Source of the DNA: Enterobacteria phage RB18
Sequence record: NC_054906.1
Reading direction: 5' to 3' (one strand)
Length of the DNA: 64,000 nucleotides
Below, one piece after another: positions 3,901 through 56,623 of this stretch (position 1 is the stretch's first letter; each line of letters starts with the position of its first letter). The notes under the pieces were generated by a model that searched no databases, had not been told where the DNA came from, and saw nothing but the letters and a program-made list of their open reading frames with translations. The position numbers and the translations under genes are program-made.

Positions 3901-4145
3901 TGGAAGGTTTAATTGAAGCTATTAAATCAAACGACCTCGTAGCCGCTCGTAAATTATTTGCTGAAGCCATGGCTGCAAGAACGATTGATTTAATTAAAGA
4001 AGAAAAAATCGCTATCGCTCGTAATTTCTTAATCGAAGGTGAAGAACCTGATGACGAGGATGATGACGAAGACGAAGACGAAGATAGTGATGATAAAGAC
4101 GACAAAAAAGACAAAGACTCTGACGAAGACGAGGATGATGAATAA
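3900..4145 (+). CDS. 67: Prohead core protein gp67 with acidic D/E-rich C-terminal tail
   Basis: TAATG overlap with gene 20 stop; 81 aa; poly-Asp/Glu tail; synteny. Confidence 0.88.
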
Positions 4146-7632: not shown

Positions 7633-7658
7633 TCTCTAACGATAGAAACACAATTTTA

Positions 7659-7682
7659 GGGAACCTTCGGGTTCCCTTTTTC
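7659..7682. terminator. Bidirectional terminator GGGAACC-TTCG-GGTTCCC + T6 between convergent genes 23 and segD
   Basis: 7-bp GC stem, UUCG tetraloop, T-run. Confidence 0.85.
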
Positions 7683-8344
7683 TATTTTATACGATAGCAA
7701 TCAGGCATATCATCCGCATTTATCCAATTGCGAATAGTTTTAGGACTAACTTTAAAATGCTCCGCTGCGTAATCAGGATTATCAAATTTAACGCCCTTTA
7801 TACATATTGGAATAAATTTTTTAATACCACCAAGTTTTTCAGAAATAGCTTTACGATGTGAAATCGATATAGGTTTATTTTTTCGTGGATGAACATGTGT
7901 TTTATAATATTCATTGCGCCCTTTAACTCGCTTCGCAATAGTTTCATCAGATTGCTTAACGCCTGTTTTTGCCTTTGATATTTTTCGTTTAGCTTCCACA
8001 GTCATTCCTTCTTTTGTTCGTATTGATAACATATTACGATATGAAGGATCTTGCAAATGAACTATAACTGGATTTCCTCTGCCACCAATAGCAGCATTAT
8101 AGGTATCAGTTCTCATAACGAATTCCTCATTGACTAGTAAAGCTTCCATTTTATACATCTCCTCAGATGAGGAGAAAGAATAAAGAATTTCTTTTTTAAA
8201 GTTATGAATACCATATTTTTTGATGGATTTTTTGATGTTTACGCCAGAACCCATATAACCATCGTTTTCGTCAAGAGTAGCATGAGCTCCGATGTAAATT
8301 TTTCCATTGATGATATTAGTAATTTGATATATTAAATATTTCAT
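7682..8344 (-). CDS. segD: GIY-YIG homing-endonuclease-like protein (seg family), at the T4 segD position between genes 23 and 24
   Basis: MKYLIYQITNIINGKIYIGAH GIY-YIG motif near N-terminus; start taken at third ATG (8344), best spaced from GGAG; track ORF extends to 8383. Confidence 0.75.
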   Translation of the reverse strand: MKYLIYQITNIINGKIYIGAHATLDENDGYMGSGVNIKKSIKKYGIHNFKKEILYSFSSSEEMYKMEALLVNEEFVMRTDTYNAAIGGRGNPVIVHLQDPSYRNMLSIRTKEGMTVEAKRKISKAKTGVKQSDETIAKRVKGRNEYYKTHVHPRKNKPISISHRKAISEKLGGIKKFIPICIKGVKFDNPDYAAEHFKVSPKTIRNWINADDMPDCYRIK

Positions 8345-23346: not shown

Positions 23347-23350
23347 CAAT

Positions 23351-23368
23351 GGGGACCGAAAGGTCCCC
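23351..23368. terminator. Terminator GGGGACC-GAAA-GGTCCCC between gene 54 and alt.-3-like gene
   Basis: 7-bp stem, GAAA loop, flanking T/A runs. Confidence 0.8.
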
Positions 23369-23374
23369 ATATTT

Positions 23375-23665
23375 TTATTTACGGAATGAAATAAAAGCAG
23401 CAACTGAAGCAACAGAGGTTTCTTCAATATAAACTTCAATTTTTACCGGAGCTTCTGACTCAAATTTACCTGTTACTACACCCTGAAAAATACTTTCAGT
23501 CTGTTCTGGCTTTGAAAAATTTTCAGAAGGAAAAATTCCGAACTTTTTATCTGTTCCAAAAATTTTAATAAATTCATCGTAAACTGCTTCATTAAAAGCA
23601 TTATCAGCAGGAATAACGCCTTCAACTACAAGTTCTTGACCTAAAAAGCGCAAAGAAGATTTCAT
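23375..23665 (-). CDS. Hypothetical protein (96 aa, T4 alt.-3 position)
   Basis: ATG start with GAGGA SD; preceded by conserved 54-bp leader element. Confidence 0.7.
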   Translation of the reverse strand: MKSSLRFLGQELVVEGVIPADNAFNEAVYDEFIKIFGTDKKFGIFPSENFSKPEQTESIFQGVVTGKFESEAPVKIEVYIEETSVASVAAFISFRK

Positions 23666-23672
23666 TTTGTGT

Positions 23673-23726
23673 TCCTCATGTTATGTCAGTAAGACTACTA
23701 TAACACAATATGAGGGACTTGTAAAC
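23673..23726 (-). repeat. 54-bp leader element, copy A (early-type promoter GTTTAC-N18-TATAGT plus leader stem-loop) upstream of alt.-3-like gene
   Basis: 51 of 54 identical to 38812-38865; -35 at 23721-23726 overlaps stop of Alt paralog. Confidence 0.7.
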
Positions 23727-25783
23727 TACATTTTGAACTTTTTAGACATTCCGTTGATGTTAACCAAAGAAGCTAAGATTTGAGAAACTTCGTTTTCCTC
23801 TTCTTTTGATTCTTCTACAAGGAATTGATTAAATCCAGCCATTGGACGAACTTCTCCGGTTTCCATTAGATAGTCACCATCATATACTGATTCTTCTAAT
23901 TGTTCAGAAGGAGGAACGATTGTACCTTCGATTAGATACTTGTTATAAGCAGTTTCTTTCATAAAGTAAGTACTTACTTTATTAATCTTCAGTAAAATTC
24001 CACGCGGTAGAATAACTTCAGCTTCTGATGGAAATCCTGTTAAATGACCTGGAACGATAACTTTGATTCGCTCAGCTCCTTTAATTACCATACCCACGCT
24101 AGTTTCAGCATCTTCATTAGCATATGTAGAATGACTACCCATATGCATCAAATCTTCTGCATCAACAGAACCTTCTCCTTCACCAGAAAATACTGCGCCG
24201 GAATCATCTAGAGCCATATAGTTTTTACCATGCTCACCGAAGATATTTGGTTTAAGTGATGTCGATACGAAGTTCTTGAAATAGAACATTTTGTTTTCAA
24301 TGTTATGACGCAAAGTTTTAAAGGTAACTTCTTGTCCACGATAAAGCGTAGTTCCTGGAGGAAGAACTGAACCTTTAGCGAATGCAGAATCCAACGTCTC
24401 GATGTGCTTAATAGCTCGTTCCATATATTCTTCACGGGTAGAATCTGGTTTACCCAAAAGGAACGAGTTCATTTCAACATATGAATCTGCACAATAATCT
24501 TCAATTACATCAGATTCAGCTTGAGTTAATCCTTTTGGAGTTACTTCGGTGCTTGCGTATTCATATGCCTGAGCAGCAGATTCATTAATCAATTTATAAA
24601 TGCCATTCATGACAAATTGAATAATAGCTGTCTTTTCATCTGGCGTAGCTTTAGAACCTTTAACCAAATCATTGATAATTTTCTTAATAACATCAAAGCT
24701 ATTAGAAATATTAATATCAGCAAGATCGCTTAAAATTTTATCAGTTTTATAATCAAAGAATTCTTTATTCTTTAAATATTCTTGAGAACCTTGATATGTT
24801 ATATCGCTCTGCAACTTGATGGATGGATCACGTAAACGTGCATGGGCTAATGCAATATGATTTCGGAAGTTTTCTAGTTCATAATCGCTAGATTTAAAAC
24901 GAGAAGCACTCCTCATACCACCGATAGCTCCTTTGTTGAAGTTTGAACCAATCTGAATAACGCCAGAGTTCATTGGTCCTTCTGCTTTATATACCGGAAC
25001 TTTGGATTCAAACTCTTGATATTTCTTAGCAGCGAAGCTATCACCCTGAAGTGAAGCATCAACAGTAGAATATTGAGCTTGTGCTGCTAATCGACGACTA
25101 ATTTTAGTTTTCTGAATAACAGCTTGGTCAGTGCGCTTATCATTTTCTAAAGCAATAGAAGCAGCAACTGCGACAGCTTTAGGAACAGCATTACCTGTTT
25201 TAACGTCTACATAAACATCACCAACCTTTGATTCAACTTTTGTGAATAACTCAGCTGAAATAGGAGGTACACCTGGAATGTCTTCTAAATTGGCATTTTT
25301 ACGGTAAACCATAATATATGCATATTTCTTATCATAGTCCCAGATTTCCTTTAAAAGAACATATCGGCCTGCTCCTTTAGTACGTACTAAACGGTCAGCA
25401 ATAACTTGCATTTGACGAGCAGCGCCATTTGTTTTACTCTTTAGTACGCGGAATAAGCATGCATCAATTTTATACTGTTTCATTGTTTGAAGAGCAGTAT
25501 CAAAAACAGCATTAATGACGCCAATTGGATTTCCACCCAAGTTTTTAAGCTTAACTAATGATAGTTTCTCATTAACACCTATCATTACGATATGCATCAT
25601 TTTGTCGCCTGGCTTAACGTTTTTATTCGTATCACCGCCAGAGGTGTATGTACAAAATCTAAATCCGGGGAGAACGCTTTCTTCACCGGCTTGAATAGCA
25701 AAAATTTGTGGTATTTTATGCTTAGGATTTAAGTTAACAACCGGCGCCGAAGCGCCGTCAAATAATTCTGTAATAAGTTCCAT
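23726..25783 (-). CDS. Alt-like mono-ADP-ribosyltransferase paralog (685 aa), intact
   Basis: N-terminus MELITELFDG identical in type to Alt; C-terminal R (LYRGQ), STS (FVSTSL) and EAEV motifs; diverged central region. Confidence 0.85.
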   Translation of the reverse strand: MELITELFDGASAPVVNLNPKHKIPQIFAIQAGEESVLPGFRFCTYTSGGDTNKNVKPGDKMMHIVMIGVNEKLSLVKLKNLGGNPIGVINAVFDTALQTMKQYKIDACLFRVLKSKTNGAARQMQVIADRLVRTKGAGRYVLLKEIWDYDKKYAYIMVYRKNANLEDIPGVPPISAELFTKVESKVGDVYVDVKTGNAVPKAVAVAASIALENDKRTDQAVIQKTKISRRLAAQAQYSTVDASLQGDSFAAKKYQEFESKVPVYKAEGPMNSGVIQIGSNFNKGAIGGMRSASRFKSSDYELENFRNHIALAHARLRDPSIKLQSDITYQGSQEYLKNKEFFDYKTDKILSDLADINISNSFDVIKKIINDLVKGSKATPDEKTAIIQFVMNGIYKLINESAAQAYEYASTEVTPKGLTQAESDVIEDYCADSYVEMNSFLLGKPDSTREEYMERAIKHIETLDSAFAKGSVLPPGTTLYRGQEVTFKTLRHNIENKMFYFKNFVSTSLKPNIFGEHGKNYMALDDSGAVFSGEGEGSVDAEDLMHMGSHSTYANEDAETSVGMVIKGAERIKVIVPGHLTGFPSEAEVILPRGILLKINKVSTYFMKETAYNKYLIEGTIVPPSEQLEESVYDGDYLMETGEVRPMAGFNQFLVEESKEEENEVSQILASLVNINGMSKKFKM

Positions 25784-25786
25784 GAT

Positions 25787-27883
25787 TTATCCTTGAACGA
25801 ACTTGTAAGGCATGTTTGTAATATCTATGCAAGACGCAATAATTCCAAGAGATGATTCTACTTTCTGTTTAACATTTGATGAAACAAATGATGCAAAGTC
25901 AACTCTGTCTTCTATTTCAATATCACCTGTCATTGCAACCAATTCACCAGTTTCCATTAAATGGTCTCCGTCATAGATTACCGATTCGGTGAGTTCTTCG
26001 GTGGTCATAACTTCAGCTTGAATGAGTTTTGTATTATTAGACGTGGTTCCGTCATTATTAGAAGCATCAGTTATTTTATTAACTTTGACCATCAATCCGC
26101 GCGGTAGAATAACTTCAGCTTCTGTTGCTATTCCGAGATTTCCTGGATATACAACATTAACTTTATGAGCTCCATCAATTGCCCATCCTATTTGAACTTT
26201 AACGTATTCAGGATTTTCTTTATACGCTCTTATTTCGCTTGGATTAATAGTTATTCCTTCTTCATTTTTATCAACTGTCAATTCATTACGAGCTTCTGGT
26301 TCTAAAAGACCAATACCAGCATGTGTAATTCCAAAACGTCCAAAAATGATAGGAGTTAAAGAAGTAGATACAAAATTTCTGAAATAGAACACTTTATTTT
26401 TAACTAGTGCTTCGTATATAGGAGCAGTCATACTTTGAGCACGATAAACTGTGATGCCTTCCGGTATGCGGTCACCATTTTCAAAAGCTGAATCTAAGTT
26501 ATTTATAGCAGATTCAATTTCTTTTTCACTCATTACATCATATCGTTCTGGATTGTAACGACCTAAAAGAAGATTATTGATGTCAGTATATCCTGAACCG
26601 CAATATTCTCTAATGCCACGCTTTTGTGATGGAGTATATTTAGAACCATCGCGGGCAATAGTAATATCAATCATTGGACCAGCACCAATTCCAGAAAAAC
26701 TGTAAATCATTCGTTTGAGGAATTTAGTTTTTGCTGCGTTCCAGGAATTTTTAGTTATTTCTTCCCAGACTTCATCTGGTTGTCCTTTACGATTTTTATT
26801 ATGATTAGCAAGCCATTTATCTTTATAATCTTCAAAGAATTGATTTACAGCTGCTGCGTATTTCTCTAAACATTTTATTGAAGTAGTTGGTTCATTTTTA
26901 ATTGCATTAAAAATTACTTCTTTAATTTTTTCTGAAACTTCACCGACTTGACTCATTGGAAAGAATTTATAATCATAGTGAAGTTCATCTGCCGTTCCTT
27001 CAGCAATAATTTTTGCTGCCTTTGTTTTAGAAGCTAATGAATTAATTCCAATTTTCATTTCTTCTGCTTCGGGAATTAAAGGTGCAGTAGCTGGTTTATT
27101 AAAATTAGCTGCTGTAGATTCATACTTCTGGAATAATTCACTTTCAAATCTAGAAGATTCCAATGACTGACTTTGTGCAATTGCTCTACGGGAAATTTTA
27201 ACTTTAACGATTACAGCTTGGTCAGAACGTTTATCATTTTCTTGCGCAATAGATGCTGCAATTGCCTCATTTTTAGTTACTTGGGCTCCAGTATCTTTAT
27301 TGATATAAACATCACCGACTTTCGATTCAACTTTAGTAAAGAGCTCGGTACTAATTTCCGGAACTCCTGGAATGTCTTCTAGTGATACATTTTTGCGATG
27401 TATAAGAATATATGCATACTTTTTATCGTAATCCCAGAGTTCCTTAAGAAGGACGTATCTACCACCTGAACGACTACGGATAAGTCTATCAGCAATAACT
27501 TGAATTTGTCGAGCTTGGCCAGCAGTTTTAGACTTAAGAATACGAAGCATACAAGCATCAATTTTATATTGACGCATTGTTTGCATTGCAACAGTAAAAA
27601 CTGAATTGATATAATTAATCGGGCTTGGACCAAGACCTTTTAATTTGGCAATTGAACCTTTAGCAGTTAATGTAAAAGGAACAATATGCATCATTTTATC
27701 GCCCATCTTTAAATCGCGATTAGTATCACCTCCAGATGTATAGGTACATAAACGAAAGCCTGGTTGTTCAATTGCATCATCAACATGAACTGAAAAAATT
27801 TGTGGTATTTTCTTCTTTGGATTTAAGTTTGTAATCGGAAGAGTAGTATCTTCGTCAAATAATTCTGTAATAAGTTCCATCAT
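25787..27883 (-). CDS. alt: Alt ADP-ribosyltransferase, packaged internal head protein (697-698 aa)
   Basis: MELITELFDEDTTLPITNLNPKK N-terminus; VYRAQ / FVSTSL / TEAEV ART motifs; TATAAATA upstream; adjacent to gene 30 as in T4. Confidence 0.92.
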   Translation of the reverse strand: MMELITELFDEDTTLPITNLNPKKKIPQIFSVHVDDAIEQPGFRLCTYTSGGDTNRDLKMGDKMMHIVPFTLTAKGSIAKLKGLGPSPINYINSVFTVAMQTMRQYKIDACMLRILKSKTAGQARQIQVIADRLIRSRSGGRYVLLKELWDYDKKYAYILIHRKNVSLEDIPGVPEISTELFTKVESKVGDVYINKDTGAQVTKNEAIAASIAQENDKRSDQAVIVKVKISRRAIAQSQSLESSRFESELFQKYESTAANFNKPATAPLIPEAEEMKIGINSLASKTKAAKIIAEGTADELHYDYKFFPMSQVGEVSEKIKEVIFNAIKNEPTTSIKCLEKYAAAVNQFFEDYKDKWLANHNKNRKGQPDEVWEEITKNSWNAAKTKFLKRMIYSFSGIGAGPMIDITIARDGSKYTPSQKRGIREYCGSGYTDINNLLLGRYNPERYDVMSEKEIESAINNLDSAFENGDRIPEGITVYRAQSMTAPIYEALVKNKVFYFRNFVSTSLTPIIFGRFGITHAGIGLLEPEARNELTVDKNEEGITINPSEIRAYKENPEYVKVQIGWAIDGAHKVNVVYPGNLGIATEAEVILPRGLMVKVNKITDASNNDGTTSNNTKLIQAEVMTTEELTESVIYDGDHLMETGELVAMTGDIEIEDRVDFASFVSSNVKQKVESSLGIIASCIDITNMPYKFVQG

Positions 27884-32292: not shown

Positions 32293-32625
32293 TTATTTTA
32301 CTACTTTCCAATGCTGCATGTCAAGTTTACCAACTTTTTTCATCTTCTCAATTAAGCGTTCGGCACGTTGGCGAGCTGTAACATAATACCATTCACCTAA
32401 TTCATTTTGTTCAATTTTTCCAACGATTACTGTATTCAATTCATAAATCCAACCAGTAAAGAAATTATGAACTTGAATTGTAAAGGTGAAATCTGTTCCC
32501 ATACCTTCTGTTGTTTCTACTTCAATAATATCACCTTCAACTGCCATTAAGAACCACATAGTTTCATCATATTTACCATTGAAGCATTTAGTTTTAACTG
32601 TAGCGTTCAGATTAATCGTTTTCAT
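32293..32625 (-). CDS. Hypothetical protein (110 aa)
   Basis: ATG start; early-type promoter 32653-32682 upstream. Confidence 0.6.
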   Translation of the reverse strand: MKTINLNATVKTKCFNGKYDETMWFLMAVEGDIIEVETTEGMGTDFTFTIQVHNFFTGWIYELNTVIVGKIEQNELGEWYYVTARQRAERLIEKMKKVGKLDMQHWKVVK

Positions 32626-32652
32626 TTTATTCTCCTTTGTTTGTGTAAGATA

Positions 32653-32682
32653 ATACTATCACAAAGGAACCATACTGTAAAC
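32653..32682 (-). promoter_or_regulatory. Early-type promoter GTTTAC-N18-TAGTAT
   Basis: -35 = rc of 32677-32682; -10 = rc of 32653-32658. Confidence 0.55.
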
Positions 32683-37960: not shown

Positions 37961-38310
37961 TTAGAAAGGTCCTGGATGTCTTCTGCGAACTTGTTGAAGG
38001 AGTTGTTGATTTGTTTTTCAACCAATCCTGGCTTATGAGCCACCACATCCGCCTTCTTTGCGTCTTTGCGCAGCTTTTCATTTTCACGCTCAATAGCAGC
38101 AATTGCCTCACGATTTTTATTATTCATCGCATCAATATAATTATACTGAATTCGCAAATTATTTAATGCTAAAGCGTTTTCATTGGCCGTTTTTGTAATT
38201 TCTACAACAGACGTTTCTAATCTTTCAATTTTATTTTTTAAAATTAAAGAAGTTCCGCCCAATGCAATTACAATTAATAACAAGCCTGCTGTCGTATTAC
38301 TTAATTGCAT
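37957..38310 (-). CDS. Inner-membrane spanin (i-spanin, Rz-like; T4 pseT.3 equivalent)
   Basis: N-terminal transmembrane helix followed by coiled-coil region. Confidence 0.75.
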   Translation of the reverse strand: MQLSNTTAGLLLIVIALGGTSLILKNKIERLETSVVEITKTANENALALNNLRIQYNYIDAMNNKNREAIAAIERENEKLRKDAKKADVVAHKPGLVEKQINNSFNKFAEDIQDLSK

Positions 38311-38804
38311 AAAGTTTTAATAACCTCTATAATATCGTCTTGAGAAAGACCGTTAATTAAAATATGATGTTCAGCCGGAGATTTAGAAATTTTAAAGCAT
38401 GCCTCAACATCTTCTGCCATATCCGATGCACTACGATTTGGATTACTAATACCAAGGCGGTGTTTTCCCGTCAAAGGATTAACGATGATATAGCATTTGC
38501 AGCTATTGATATGAACATTGGGTTGAGTCTGATTAATGAACACTTCACAATCATACTTAGCGAGTTGATTTTCTAAAAAGACTTTCATCTCTTCAACCGC
38601 ATCAGGAAGCATATCACGGGCTTGCTCAAGACGACGATTTCGATATTCTTTAATGGTCGTTTTCCGCTTGACTTGCTTTGCTAAATCTTTCTTAAGATCG
38701 GTGATATATCCAACTCGACGATTTCCTTTGAATACAGAAATCCCATCTGTAGTATCACCGTATGCTTCAACGACCATTTCAGTAGTAATAAGCTGTAAAT
38801 CCAT
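38301..38804 (-). CDS. alc: Alc, inhibitor of host transcription (167 aa)
   Basis: Two adjacent ATGs; second better spaced from GAGGA; 54-bp leader element upstream. Confidence 0.85.
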   Translation of the reverse strand: MDLQLITTEMVVEAYGDTTDGISVFKGNRRVGYITDLKKDLAKQVKRKTTIKEYRNRRLEQARDMLPDAVEEMKVFLENQLAKYDCEVFINQTQPNVHINSCKCYIIVNPLTGKHRLGISNPNRSASDMAEDVEACFKISKSPAEHHILINGLSQDDIIEVIKTLCN

Positions 38805-38811
38805 CATAAAG

Positions 38812-38865
38812 TCCTCATGTTATGTCAGTAAGACTACTGTAACACAACACGAGGGACTTGTAAAC
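38812..38865 (-). repeat. 54-bp leader element, copy B (GTTTAC-N18-TACAGT plus leader stem-loop) upstream of alc
   Basis: 51 of 54 identical to copy A at 23673-23726. Confidence 0.7.
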
Positions 38866-38868
38866 AGC

Positions 38869-40456
<1,588 letters not shown>

Positions 40457-47226: not shown

Positions 47227-47261
47227 AGGCTATAGTATCACTACCATAGCCTGTTGTAAAC
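47227..47261 (-). promoter_or_regulatory. Early-type promoter GTTTAC-N18-TACTAT with 7-bp inverted repeat (AGGCTAT / ATAGCCT) around the -10
   Basis: -35 = rc of 47256-47261; -10 = rc of 47232-47237; IR arms 47227-47233 and 47246-47252. Confidence 0.55.
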
Positions 47262-55476: not shown

Positions 55477-56592
55477 ATGGAAAAATTTATGGCAGAGTTT
55501 GGACAAGGATATGTCCAAACACCATTTTTATCGGAAAGTAATTCAGTAAGATATAAAATAAGTATAGCGGGTTCTTGTCCGCTTTCTACCGCAGGACCGT
55601 ATGTTAAATTTCAGGATAATCCTGTAGGAAGTCAAACATTTAGCGCAGGTCTTCATTTAAGAGTTTTTGACCCTTCCACCGGAGCATTAGTTGATAGTAA
55701 GTCATATGCTTTTTCGACTTCAAATGATACTACATCAGCTGCTTTTGTTAGTTTCATGAATTCTTTGACGAATAATCGAATTGTTGCTATATTAACTAGT
55801 GGAAAGGTTAATTTTCCTCCTGAAGTAGTATCTTGGTTAAGAACCGCAGGAACGTCTGCCTTTCCATCTGACTCTATATTGTCAAGATTTGACGTATCAT
55901 ATGCTGCTTTTTATACTTCTTCTAAAAGAGCTATTGCATTAGAGCATGTTAAACTGAGTAACAGAAAAAGCACAGATGACTATCAAACTATTTTAGATGT
56001 TGTATTTGACAGTTTAGAAGACGTCGGAGCTACCGGGTTTCCAAGAAGAACGTATGAAAGCGTTGAGCAATTTATGTCAGCGGTTGGTGGAACTAATAAC
56101 GAAATTGCGCGTCTACCAACTTCAGCTGCTATAAGTAAACTCTCTGATTATAATTTAATTCCTGGTGATGTTCTTTATCTTAAAGCACAGTTATATGCTG
56201 ATGCTGATTTACTTGCTCTTGGAACTACAAATATATCTATCCGTTTTTATAATGCATCTAATGGATATATTTCCTCGACACAAGCTGAGTTTACTGGACA
56301 AGCTGGGTCATGGGAATTAAAGGAAGATTATGTAGTTGTTCCAGAAAACGCAGTAGGATTTACGATATATGCACAAAGAACTGCACAAGCTGGTCAAGGC
56401 GGCATGAGAAATTTAAGTTTTTCTGAAGTATCAAGAAACGGCGGCATTTCAAAACCTGCTGAATTTGGCGTCAATGGTATTCGTGTTAATTATATCTGTG
56501 AATCTGCTTCACCTCCGGATATAATGGTACTTCCTACACAAGCATCGTCTAAAACTGGTAAAGTGTTTGGGCAAGAATTTAGAGAAGTATAA
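55477..56592 (+). CDS. 35: Long tail fiber hinge connector gp35
   Basis: 371 aa; synteny 34-35-36-37. Confidence 0.9.
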   Translation: MEKFMAEFGQGYVQTPFLSESNSVRYKISIAGSCPLSTAGPYVKFQDNPVGSQTFSAGLHLRVFDPSTGALVDSKSYAFSTSNDTTSAAFVSFMNSLTNNRIVAILTSGKVNFPPEVVSWLRTAGTSAFPSDSILSRFDVSYAAFYTSSKRAIALEHVKLSNRKSTDDYQTILDVVFDSLEDVGATGFPRRTYESVEQFMSAVGGTNNEIARLPTSAAISKLSDYNLIPGDVLYLKAQLYADADLLALGTTNISIRFYNASNGYISSTQAEFTGQAGSWELKEDYVVVPENAVGFTIYAQRTAQAGQGGMRNLSFSEVSRNGGISKPAEFGVNGIRVNYICESASPPDIMVLPTQASSKTGKVFGQEFREV

Positions 56593-56597
56593 ATTGA

Positions 56598-56620
56598 GGG
56601 AGCCTTCGGGTTCCCTTTTT
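56598..56620 (+). terminator. Terminator GGGAGCC-TTCG-GGTTCCC + T5 after gene 35
   Basis: 7-bp stem (one G-U), UUCG loop, T-run. Confidence 0.8.
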
Positions 56621-56623
56621 CTT

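Follow-up and report, generated by a model that had tools for sequence, protein, structure and literature searches.

An early promoter spacer complementary to the Shine-Dalgarno sequence in a repeated Tequatrovirus element: a candidate promoter-coupled translational gate at alc and alt.-3

Why would a T4-like phage keep nearly the same 54-bp element in front of two genes, alc and alt.-3, that lie about 15 kb apart? We examined this question in a 64,000-nt stretch of the Enterobacteria phage RB18 genome (NC_054906.1), hereafter the window. The window comes from a T4/T2-like Tequatrovirus, and the surroundings of both copies of the element match about 500 Tequatrovirus genomes (T4, T2, T6, the RB phages, and Shigella and Yersinia relatives) at 95-98% identity. 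Alc is the T4 factor that shuts off host transcription, and in the literature we searched, control of its expression is not tied to RNA structure. The genes around both copies are on the minus strand, as follows.

38812-38865, minus strand: copy B of the 54-bp repeat, early promoter and alc leader
38301-38807, minus strand: alc (Pfam PF17527, ALC, E 8e-92); its second ATG, at 38804, is the start annotated in T4
38869-39993, minus strand: rnlA (RNA ligase 1), the gene 5′ of alc and candidate source of read-through; the mechanical open reading frame reaches 40029
23673-23726, minus strand: copy A of the 54-bp repeat, early promoter and alt.-3 leader
23375-23665, minus strand: alt.-3 (96 aa, DUF5498, no function assigned), with a probable bidirectional terminator at 23349-23370 beyond its 3′ end
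23726-25783, minus strand: alt paralogue (685 aa), 5′ of copy A and candidate source of read-through into alt.-3

The original prediction placed the two copies at 23673-23726 and 38812-38865 (plus-strand numbering), and we recovered exactly these positions, with 51/54 bases identical; that the element functions on the minus (coding) strand was a point outside that prediction. Copy B had been described as directly upstream of alc, and it indeed occupies the space from the rnlA stop to the alc start. Copy A begins on the alt paralogue's stop codon, and its other end falls 7 nt short of the alt.-3 start. Homology between the copies breaks off sharply at each end. A whole-window scan allowing up to 3 mismatches matched just these two 54-mers, and 100 dinucleotide shuffles yielded none. 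The ten candidate early promoter-leaders of the window have a mean identity of 60% and a maximum of 73%, making the 94% identity of copies A and B an outlier. Across Tequatrovirus we counted 995 occurrences in 498 records, essentially two per genome; T4 has copies at both loci, and its pair is 53/54 identical, one loop base apart.

The coding-strand sequence of the element is GTTTAC-AAGTCCCTC(G/A)T(G/A)TT-GTGT-TA(C/T)AGT-AGTCTTACTGACATAACAT-GAGGA, with the ATG 4-7 nt beyond. This layout reduces to GTTTAC-N14-GTGT-TAYAGT plus a leader of about 24 nt ending in the Shine-Dalgarno (SD) sequence GAGGA. A generic promoter scan returned TTTACA-17-TACAGT at copy B and TTTACA-17-TATAGT at copy A, with a TG on both.

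38859-38864, minus strand: -35 hexamer TTTACA of copy B (GTTTAC at 38860-38865)
38836-38841, minus strand: -10 hexamer TACAGT of copy B with TG in front, in the apical part of the hairpin described below
38829, minus strand: predicted transcription start (A) of copy B, 7 nt past the -10 in the apical loop region, placed by promoter geometry
23720-23725, minus strand: -35 hexamer TTTACA of copy A (GTTTAC at 23721-23726; base 23726 is also in the stop codon of the alt paralogue)
23697-23702, minus strand: -10 hexamer TATAGT of copy A with TG in front

We defined a T4 early promoter by a -35 of GTTTAC(A/T), a distance of 17 ± 1 nt to TAnnnT, an upstream TG or GTG, location on the coding strand and a position close 5′ of a gene, and both copies carry the T4-type early (sigma-70) sequence by this definition. 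They also fit the T4 early consensus GTTTAC(N14)gtggTAttaT (Miller et al. 2003, as quoted in GenBank MZ726795) with 2-3 mismatches; in the form quoted there, the consensus leaves N14 free, whereas here the N14 spacer bears an anti-SD sequence. The early promoter that had been claimed for the element is therefore upheld by sigma-70/T4-early geometry at both copies and by independent annotation in other records: MZ726795 annotates the copy A site as a T4 early promoter, and LR215724 has a predicted early promoter at the alc copy.

The three differences between the copies (A/G, T/C, T/C) were found at plus-strand positions 23700/38839, 23709/38848 and 23711/38850. As had been noted, they fall in the -10 and the spacer, changing position 3 of the -10 (TATAGT versus TACAGT) and two spacer bases (CATAT versus CGTGT) on the coding strand. 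The further suggestion that alc has the weaker -10 does not describe a conserved trait. When both copies from 12 Tequatrovirus genomes were aligned, TACAGT occurred in 3/12 alc copies; T4 has TATAGT at both loci, and other phages have the consensus hexamer TATAAT at one or both. Because TACAGT is this infrequent and is absent from T4, we regard the weaker alc promoter as a strain polymorphism. Differently tuned expression of the two genes likewise does not emerge as a conserved property, as the three differences are polymorphic among phages and some copies are identical.

The element also contains an inverted repeat that had not been noticed previously, in which the 14 free spacer bases and GTGT are complementary to the leader. 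When folded as minus-strand RNA, the spacer forms the 5′ arm, the -10 lies near the apex, and the leader with GAGGA forms the 3′ arm.

38842-38859, minus strand: 5′ arm of the copy B hairpin in the RNA fold, the spacer with its anti-SD (AAGUCC-C-UCGUGUUGUGU)
38809-38825, minus strand: 3′ arm of the copy B hairpin (ACAUAACAUGAGGACUU), ending in three bases, CUU, that belong to the alc-specific flank and not to the repeat
38812-38816, minus strand: SD GAGGA of alc, fully paired in the predicted read-through RNA
23702-23718, minus strand: 5′ arm of the copy A hairpin, the spacer with its anti-SD, with an A.C mismatch from the 23709 variant
23671-23687, minus strand: 3′ arm of the copy A hairpin, including the SD GAGGA (23673-23677)

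The hairpin predicted for read-through RNA has 17-22 bp, with GAGGA buried at its base. Copy B folds at -29 kcal/mol (z -4.4) and copy A at -17.5 kcal/mol (z -2.2); a further comparison of the two hairpins gave -25.7 versus -17.2 kcal/mol. All three A/B differences sit in the 5′ arm or the apical helix, and copy B is the stabler hairpin because they exchange an A.C mismatch for G-C, A-U for G.U and U.G for C-G. For RNA starting past the -10, no significant structure was predicted; the +1 of copy A, like that of copy B placed by geometry, would be at 23690, inside the loop. Exposing the SD is predicted to cost 7.8-8.7 kcal/mol on a read-through transcript; on a transcript begun at the predicted start, the cost falls to 0.8 kcal/mol for alc and 3.8 kcal/mol for alt.-3. 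For the entire SD-to-AUG stretch, the corresponding values are 11-12 and about 4 kcal/mol. A terminator scan between rnlA and alc, and between alt and alt.-3, found no terminator-like site, so upstream polymerase should cross the element. A search of the whole window against Rfam 15 at the gathering score gave no match.

We hypothesize that the element is a promoter-coupled translational gate, in which read-through RNA would be silent for alc or alt.-3 and RNA from the gene's own promoter would be translatable, and we place the probability of this reading at about 0.55. Because the spacer can pair with the ribosome-binding site, each gene would probably be translated only from own-promoter RNA. 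Polymerase coming from rnlA (at alc) or alt (at alt.-3) would transcribe both halves of the cassette, and the read-through RNA would form the hairpin with the SD at its base, blocking ribosomes from alc or alt.-3. Initiation at the embedded promoter, about 7 nt past the -10 in the apical loop, would produce RNA with the 3′ half only, leaving the SD free. Both genes would thereby be translated when each one's early promoter fires, within the first minutes of infection, and would be off when only middle or late read-through RNA is present. A gate of this kind calls for the SD and/or AUG to be sequestered in a stable helix on upstream transcripts, as GAGGA is in the predicted fold, whose helix is backed by covariation at alc, and for promoter transcripts to start inside the hairpin without the 5′ arm, as the geometry places them with the predicted +1. 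The analysis shows the repeat, its promoter-like geometry, the predicted hairpin, covariation of that hairpin across genera at alc and its absence at alt.-3 outside Tequatrovirus; where transcription starts, whether read-through occurs, and how and when translation responds are inferred. Alt is annotated as packaged in the capsid and would thus be made late, so late read-through would flood alt.-3, a setting in which a gate would presumably make biological sense. In the literature searched, we found no mapped start and no earlier account of the alc or alt.-3 promoter or hairpin; the older T4 promoter papers may contain a prior description.

Among the 24 aligned Tequatrovirus copies, the 3′ arm ACATAACATGAGG is invariant (24/24), and variation is confined to the 5′ arm, the -10 and the loop. 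The common 5′-arm variants keep their pairs (A-U/G.U and C-G/U.G), and the variants that break a pair are singletons. No difference is fixed between the alc and alt.-3 loci in the 12 genomes, and polymorphisms at element positions 16, 29 and 32 are common to both; two genomes have identical copies, and one of these genomes, UFV10, carries a rare TATAATAAT variant at both loci. The identical copies suggest occasional conversion between the two loci. We do not claim strong concerted evolution, as the mean number of A-B differences is nearly equal within genomes (2.92) and between genomes (3.16); within-genome concerted evolution is weakly supported on these figures, with the lack of a fixed difference and the shared polymorphisms remaining. 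Given an internal hairpin that pairs the spacer with the SD and a -10 that is not conserved, the element appears to be more than two tuned promoters, and the property shared by the copies is likely the promoter-dependent unmasking of a ribosome-binding site.

At alc, the pairing could be followed well beyond Tequatrovirus. We collected rnlA-alc spacers from Gelderlandvirus, Karamvirus, Moonvirus, Jiaodavirus, Dhakavirus, Gaprivervirus, Bragavirus, Winklervirus, Gualtarvirus, a Mosigvirus-like phage and IMG/VR contigs, and analyzed 19 lineage representatives, which span about ten named genera. We set aside the homologue farthest from the rest (L065, Acinetobacter phage Ac42), which lacks GTTTAC; every alc spacer analyzed has it. 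The native spacer/leader duplexes average -16.8 kcal/mol versus -9.1 kcal/mol for cross-lineage duplexes (19 representatives, permutation p < 5e-5). Duplexes of -15 to -24 kcal/mol, with z scores of -4 to -8 against shuffled spacers, were found in 15/19 representatives, and the SD is included in 13 of these 15. Likewise, among the minimum-energy folds of 35 distinct sequences, 27 have the SD wholly or mostly paired to the spacer. The arms involved have diverged yet remain complementary, as in CUCCAUUUGGUU/AACCAAAUGGAG, CCUCAUCAG/CUGAUGAGG and CCUCUCAUUUU/AAAAUGAGAGG versus CCUCUCGUUUU/AAAACGAGAGG and CCUCGUUUGUU/AACAAACGAGG, with further spacer/SD-region examples in CUCCUCAU/AUGAGGAG and CCUCAUUUCGUU/AACGAAAUGAGG.

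A covariance model (R1, alignment A7) recovered both window copies and a third promoter, described below. Because its alignment has the Tequatrovirus helix out of register and antisense matches mixed in, we left it out of the pair counts and took the evidence for pairing at alc from an unfitted MAFFT subset and the alignment-free native-versus-cross duplex energies. In the MAFFT alignment (10 representatives), 94.6% of cells pair, compared to 39-47% with slid partners, and both sides have changed in 4 pairs. Together, the native-versus-cross energies, the z scores and the alignment pairing indicate that spacer-leader pairing at alc is under selection, usually ending at the SD. In four of the 19 alc lineages (L048/NHEP10, which is Mosigvirus-like; L047; L062; and Gualtarvirus), we found no spacer-leader duplex, and in L043 and L050 the -10-spanning hairpin ends before the SD, suggesting that SD masking is not indispensable.

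A simpler account, in line with the original prediction, would have both copies be strong early promoter-leaders that resemble each other through selection on promoter and ribosome-binding site, with differences that tune strength and an inverted repeat devoid of function. Their promoter-like geometry fits this account, as does the contrast between an invariant 3′ half (24/24) and a variable 5′ half, which leader and SD constraint alone would give. It does not explain why a free N14 spacer stays complementary to the leader through differing sequences in many genera, nor an identity of 94% where 60% is typical of early promoter-leaders in the window, and its -10 difference is the within-species polymorphism, absent from T4, described above. 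We consider this account improbable.

The inverted repeat might otherwise act as DNA, either as the site of a dimeric protein or as a cruciform or single-stranded hairpin that modulates promoter opening, replication or recombination. Sense and antisense fold about equally well across genera, as a DNA-level palindrome would (the sense fold is the stabler in 9/18 lineages, and G.U counts are equal). Tequatrovirus alone clearly favors the sense strand, at about -25 versus -16/-17 kcal/mol, and G.U pairs account for the 8-10 kcal/mol by which the sense RNA is stabler. The SD lies within the stem in most lineages, and the arm sequences drift between genera while complementarity is kept, which argues against a sequence-specific protein site. 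On balance, a role as DNA seems very improbable.

A more serious alternative comes from the cassettes known as PeSLs. As set out in Arbiol et al. 2010 (PMC2839356) and Comeau et al. 2014 (PMC4122927), these promoter-early stem-loop cassettes comprise a strong intergenic early promoter, a stem-loop at or between its boxes, an SD and an ATG, and are repeated and movable; both copies fit the structural definition in PMC2839356. The authors of the concept favor a role in termination or attenuation and in recombination (PMC2839356), having found that one PeSL stem-loop reduced expression of lacZ placed after it to a degree similar to that of a strong terminator and that paired PeSLs undergo recombination (Arbiol et al. 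2010, PMC2839356). Comeau et al. 2014 (PMC4122927) extend PeSLs to the PST/T4 pair. Applied here, the stem-loop would attenuate, pause or terminate polymerase from rnlA or alt, or protect the 3′ end of the upstream mRNA, and the promoter would restart transcription. The near-identity of the copies would matter because it lets homologous recombination shuffle gene modules, and SD pairing would be a by-product of fitting a long stem into a short leader. In keeping with this, a deposited genome carries a rho-independent terminator annotation on copy A, other early promoters of the window have -10-spanning hairpins that stop short of the SD, and the cassette appears to have moved between loci.

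Insulation of this kind is harder to reconcile with the lack of a U-run after either hairpin, with the negative terminator scan at both copies and with an SD placed in the helix base in 13 of the 15 duplex-bearing alc lineages, which a pure terminator or insulator would not need. The alt-region indel between T4 and the window, moreover, ends about 20 bp outside the element, in alt coding sequence. PeSL stem-loops are described in the two papers as terminators or attenuators, often G/C-rich, and those of PST/T4 are drawn just upstream of the promoter, whereas the stem of the 54-bp element spans spacer to SD, has no U-run and occurs in just two near-identical copies. The PeSL and gate readings are compatible. 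Since there is no U-run and the SD is so consistently in the helix, we rank the former second and think it rather unlikely.

We rejected an intrinsic terminator as the primary reading at either copy, as neither has a U-run or a hit in the scan. The sole terminator-like site nearby, at 23349-23370, consists of a perfect 9-bp stem (ATGGGGACC GAAA GGTCCCCAT) and a T-run on each strand, and looks like a bidirectional terminator between the convergent gene 54 and alt.-3. We note that in MZ726795.1 (118463-118512; L073 113-162), the SD-masking hairpin of copy A is annotated as a rho-independent terminator that overlaps the alt.-3 start and lacks a U-run, which illustrates how automated annotation can call terminators on hairpins embedded in promoters.

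The two loci appear to have acquired their gates, if they are such, at different times. At the alt/alt.-3 junction of five other genera, we found the same -35 and the same ACATGAGGA-AAACAAAATG leader, with unrelated spacers that form no pairing with the SD (duplex -3 to -8 kcal/mol). As spacer/SD pairing at alt.-3 is confined to Tequatrovirus in this comparison, the alt.-3 cassette was probably copied from alc, where it is probably ancestral. The simplest history is one of overwriting: in a Tequatrovirus ancestor, the alc cassette would have replaced the interior of an older alt.-3 promoter between the shared -35 and ACATGAGGA. Consistent with copying in this direction, the Tequatrovirus alc helix reaches three pairs into the alc-specific flank (AAGUCC/GGACUU). 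In T2, PST and T6, the alt.-3 haplotype GUUCCUU, which is exact in 42/496 records, replaces a C.A mismatch by U-A pairing to GGAAC, the flank specific to alt.-3, at -25.7 versus -23.0 kcal/mol.

Two observations concern rearrangement around these loci. We rejected the element as the breakpoint of the T4 alt.-1/alt.-2 rearrangement, as T4 and the window remain homologous for about 20 bp beyond the -35, into the final codons of the alt paralogue. The window itself has two full-length alt (ADP-ribosyltransferase) paralogues in tandem on the minus strand (23726-25783 and 25787-27883; 685 and 698 aa, about 70% DNA identity, 3 bp between them); both are full in T2, T6, DalCa and others, and in T4 one of them exists only as fragments (alt.-1, alt.-2). 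Separately, in the Mosigvirus-like Escherichia phage NHEP10 (L007, L021), the alc and alt.-3 promoter-leaders are alike, having GTTTACAAACAC... and ...ATCAACAACAYGAGGA in common and a small hairpin entirely within the spacer with no anti-SD. This likeness could be a second independent exchange between the loci or just consensus.

The closest precedent for the proposed gate is a set of T4 genes, e (lysozyme), soc, 49 and I-TevI, that are translated only from RNA begun at a promoter inside an SD-masking hairpin (Uzan and Miller 2010, PMC3014915, section 29). As proposed here, the SD is in a helix on long transcripts, the promoter overlaps the 5′ arm, the genes' own transcripts lack that arm, and the structure is kept in related phages. 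Their internal promoter is late (TATAAATA) and stops early synthesis of a late protein (PMC3014915). In contrast, the type found at both alc and alt.-3 is not TATAAATA but an early, sigma-70-type -35/-10, with the predicted logic reversed to give early-only translation and the evidence coming from sequence. Since the internal promoter is of early type, we treat the alc/alt.-3 gate as a mechanistic analogue and not a member of the late-gene set; neither gene is among the hairpin-masked genes listed in the PMC3014915 review. What is new is probably a known kind of phage control at a new place, an early-promoter counterpart of e, soc, 49 and I-TevI housed in a PeSL-type cassette. As both the mechanism class and the PeSL cassette concept have already been published, no new field is opened.

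If the gate operates as proposed, a single 60-bp intergenic segment would serve as promoter, insulator and translational switch, and would reverse the logic of gene e by limiting a protein to the early period. The cassette could also be moved to a different gene through short-patch recombination and later adjusted to its surroundings there. Such a gate would be of use in reading many small early genes of T4-like phages and in phage engineering, where inserting a gene 3′ of the cassette, or deleting its 5′ arm, would shift the timing of translation.

More tentatively, and at somewhat less than even odds, T4-like phages may carry a class of early-only gates with an anti-SD in the early promoter spacer. 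In this extended proposal, the alc gate would be ancient (about ten genera) and portable, pasted into alt.-3 by conversion between microhomologies at the -35 box and ACATGAGGA, then co-adapting there through the C-to-U change, and a third case would lie before gene 30.8. That third early promoter, of the same design and unrelated sequence, is at 32623-32682 on the minus strand, 5′ of a 110-aa open reading frame (32293-32625) that corresponds to gene 30.8 by position and length. Its spacer UCCUUUGUG pairs with the SD-containing CAAACAAAGGA (-12.1 kcal/mol, z -2.7), and it is matched by an alc-derived covariance model with an E value of 0.005.

Minus-strand early promoters with their -35 at 47260, 35558 and 32289 also have hairpins, of -15.6, -18.3 and -19.4 kcal/mol respectively, in which the spacer pairs with the first transcribed bases across the -10, in PeSL-like fashion, and stops short of the SD. 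A PeSL-like, -10-spanning architecture appears to be general to early promoters of the window (6/10 candidates). Part of the structure may therefore serve a more general purpose, as these hairpins elsewhere do not touch the SD.

In Gaprivervirus VR25, VR20 and relatives (L004 160-393; L035/L036/L063), rnlA and alc are separated by an inserted 77-aa open reading frame. This frame carries a GTGTACA promoter of its own with a G/C stem-loop in front and is labelled "inhibitor of host transcription" in RefSeq, as alc is, which looks like annotation carry-over. Elsewhere in the window, 7644-7683 and 56583-56622 are 85%-identical, terminator-like GGGAACC-TTCG-GGTTCCC stems followed by TTTTTCT, 49 kb apart, and 4041-4141 contains a run of GAC/GAA/GAT codons with a 9-12 bp periodicity that probably encodes an acidic, Asp/Glu-rich protein stretch.
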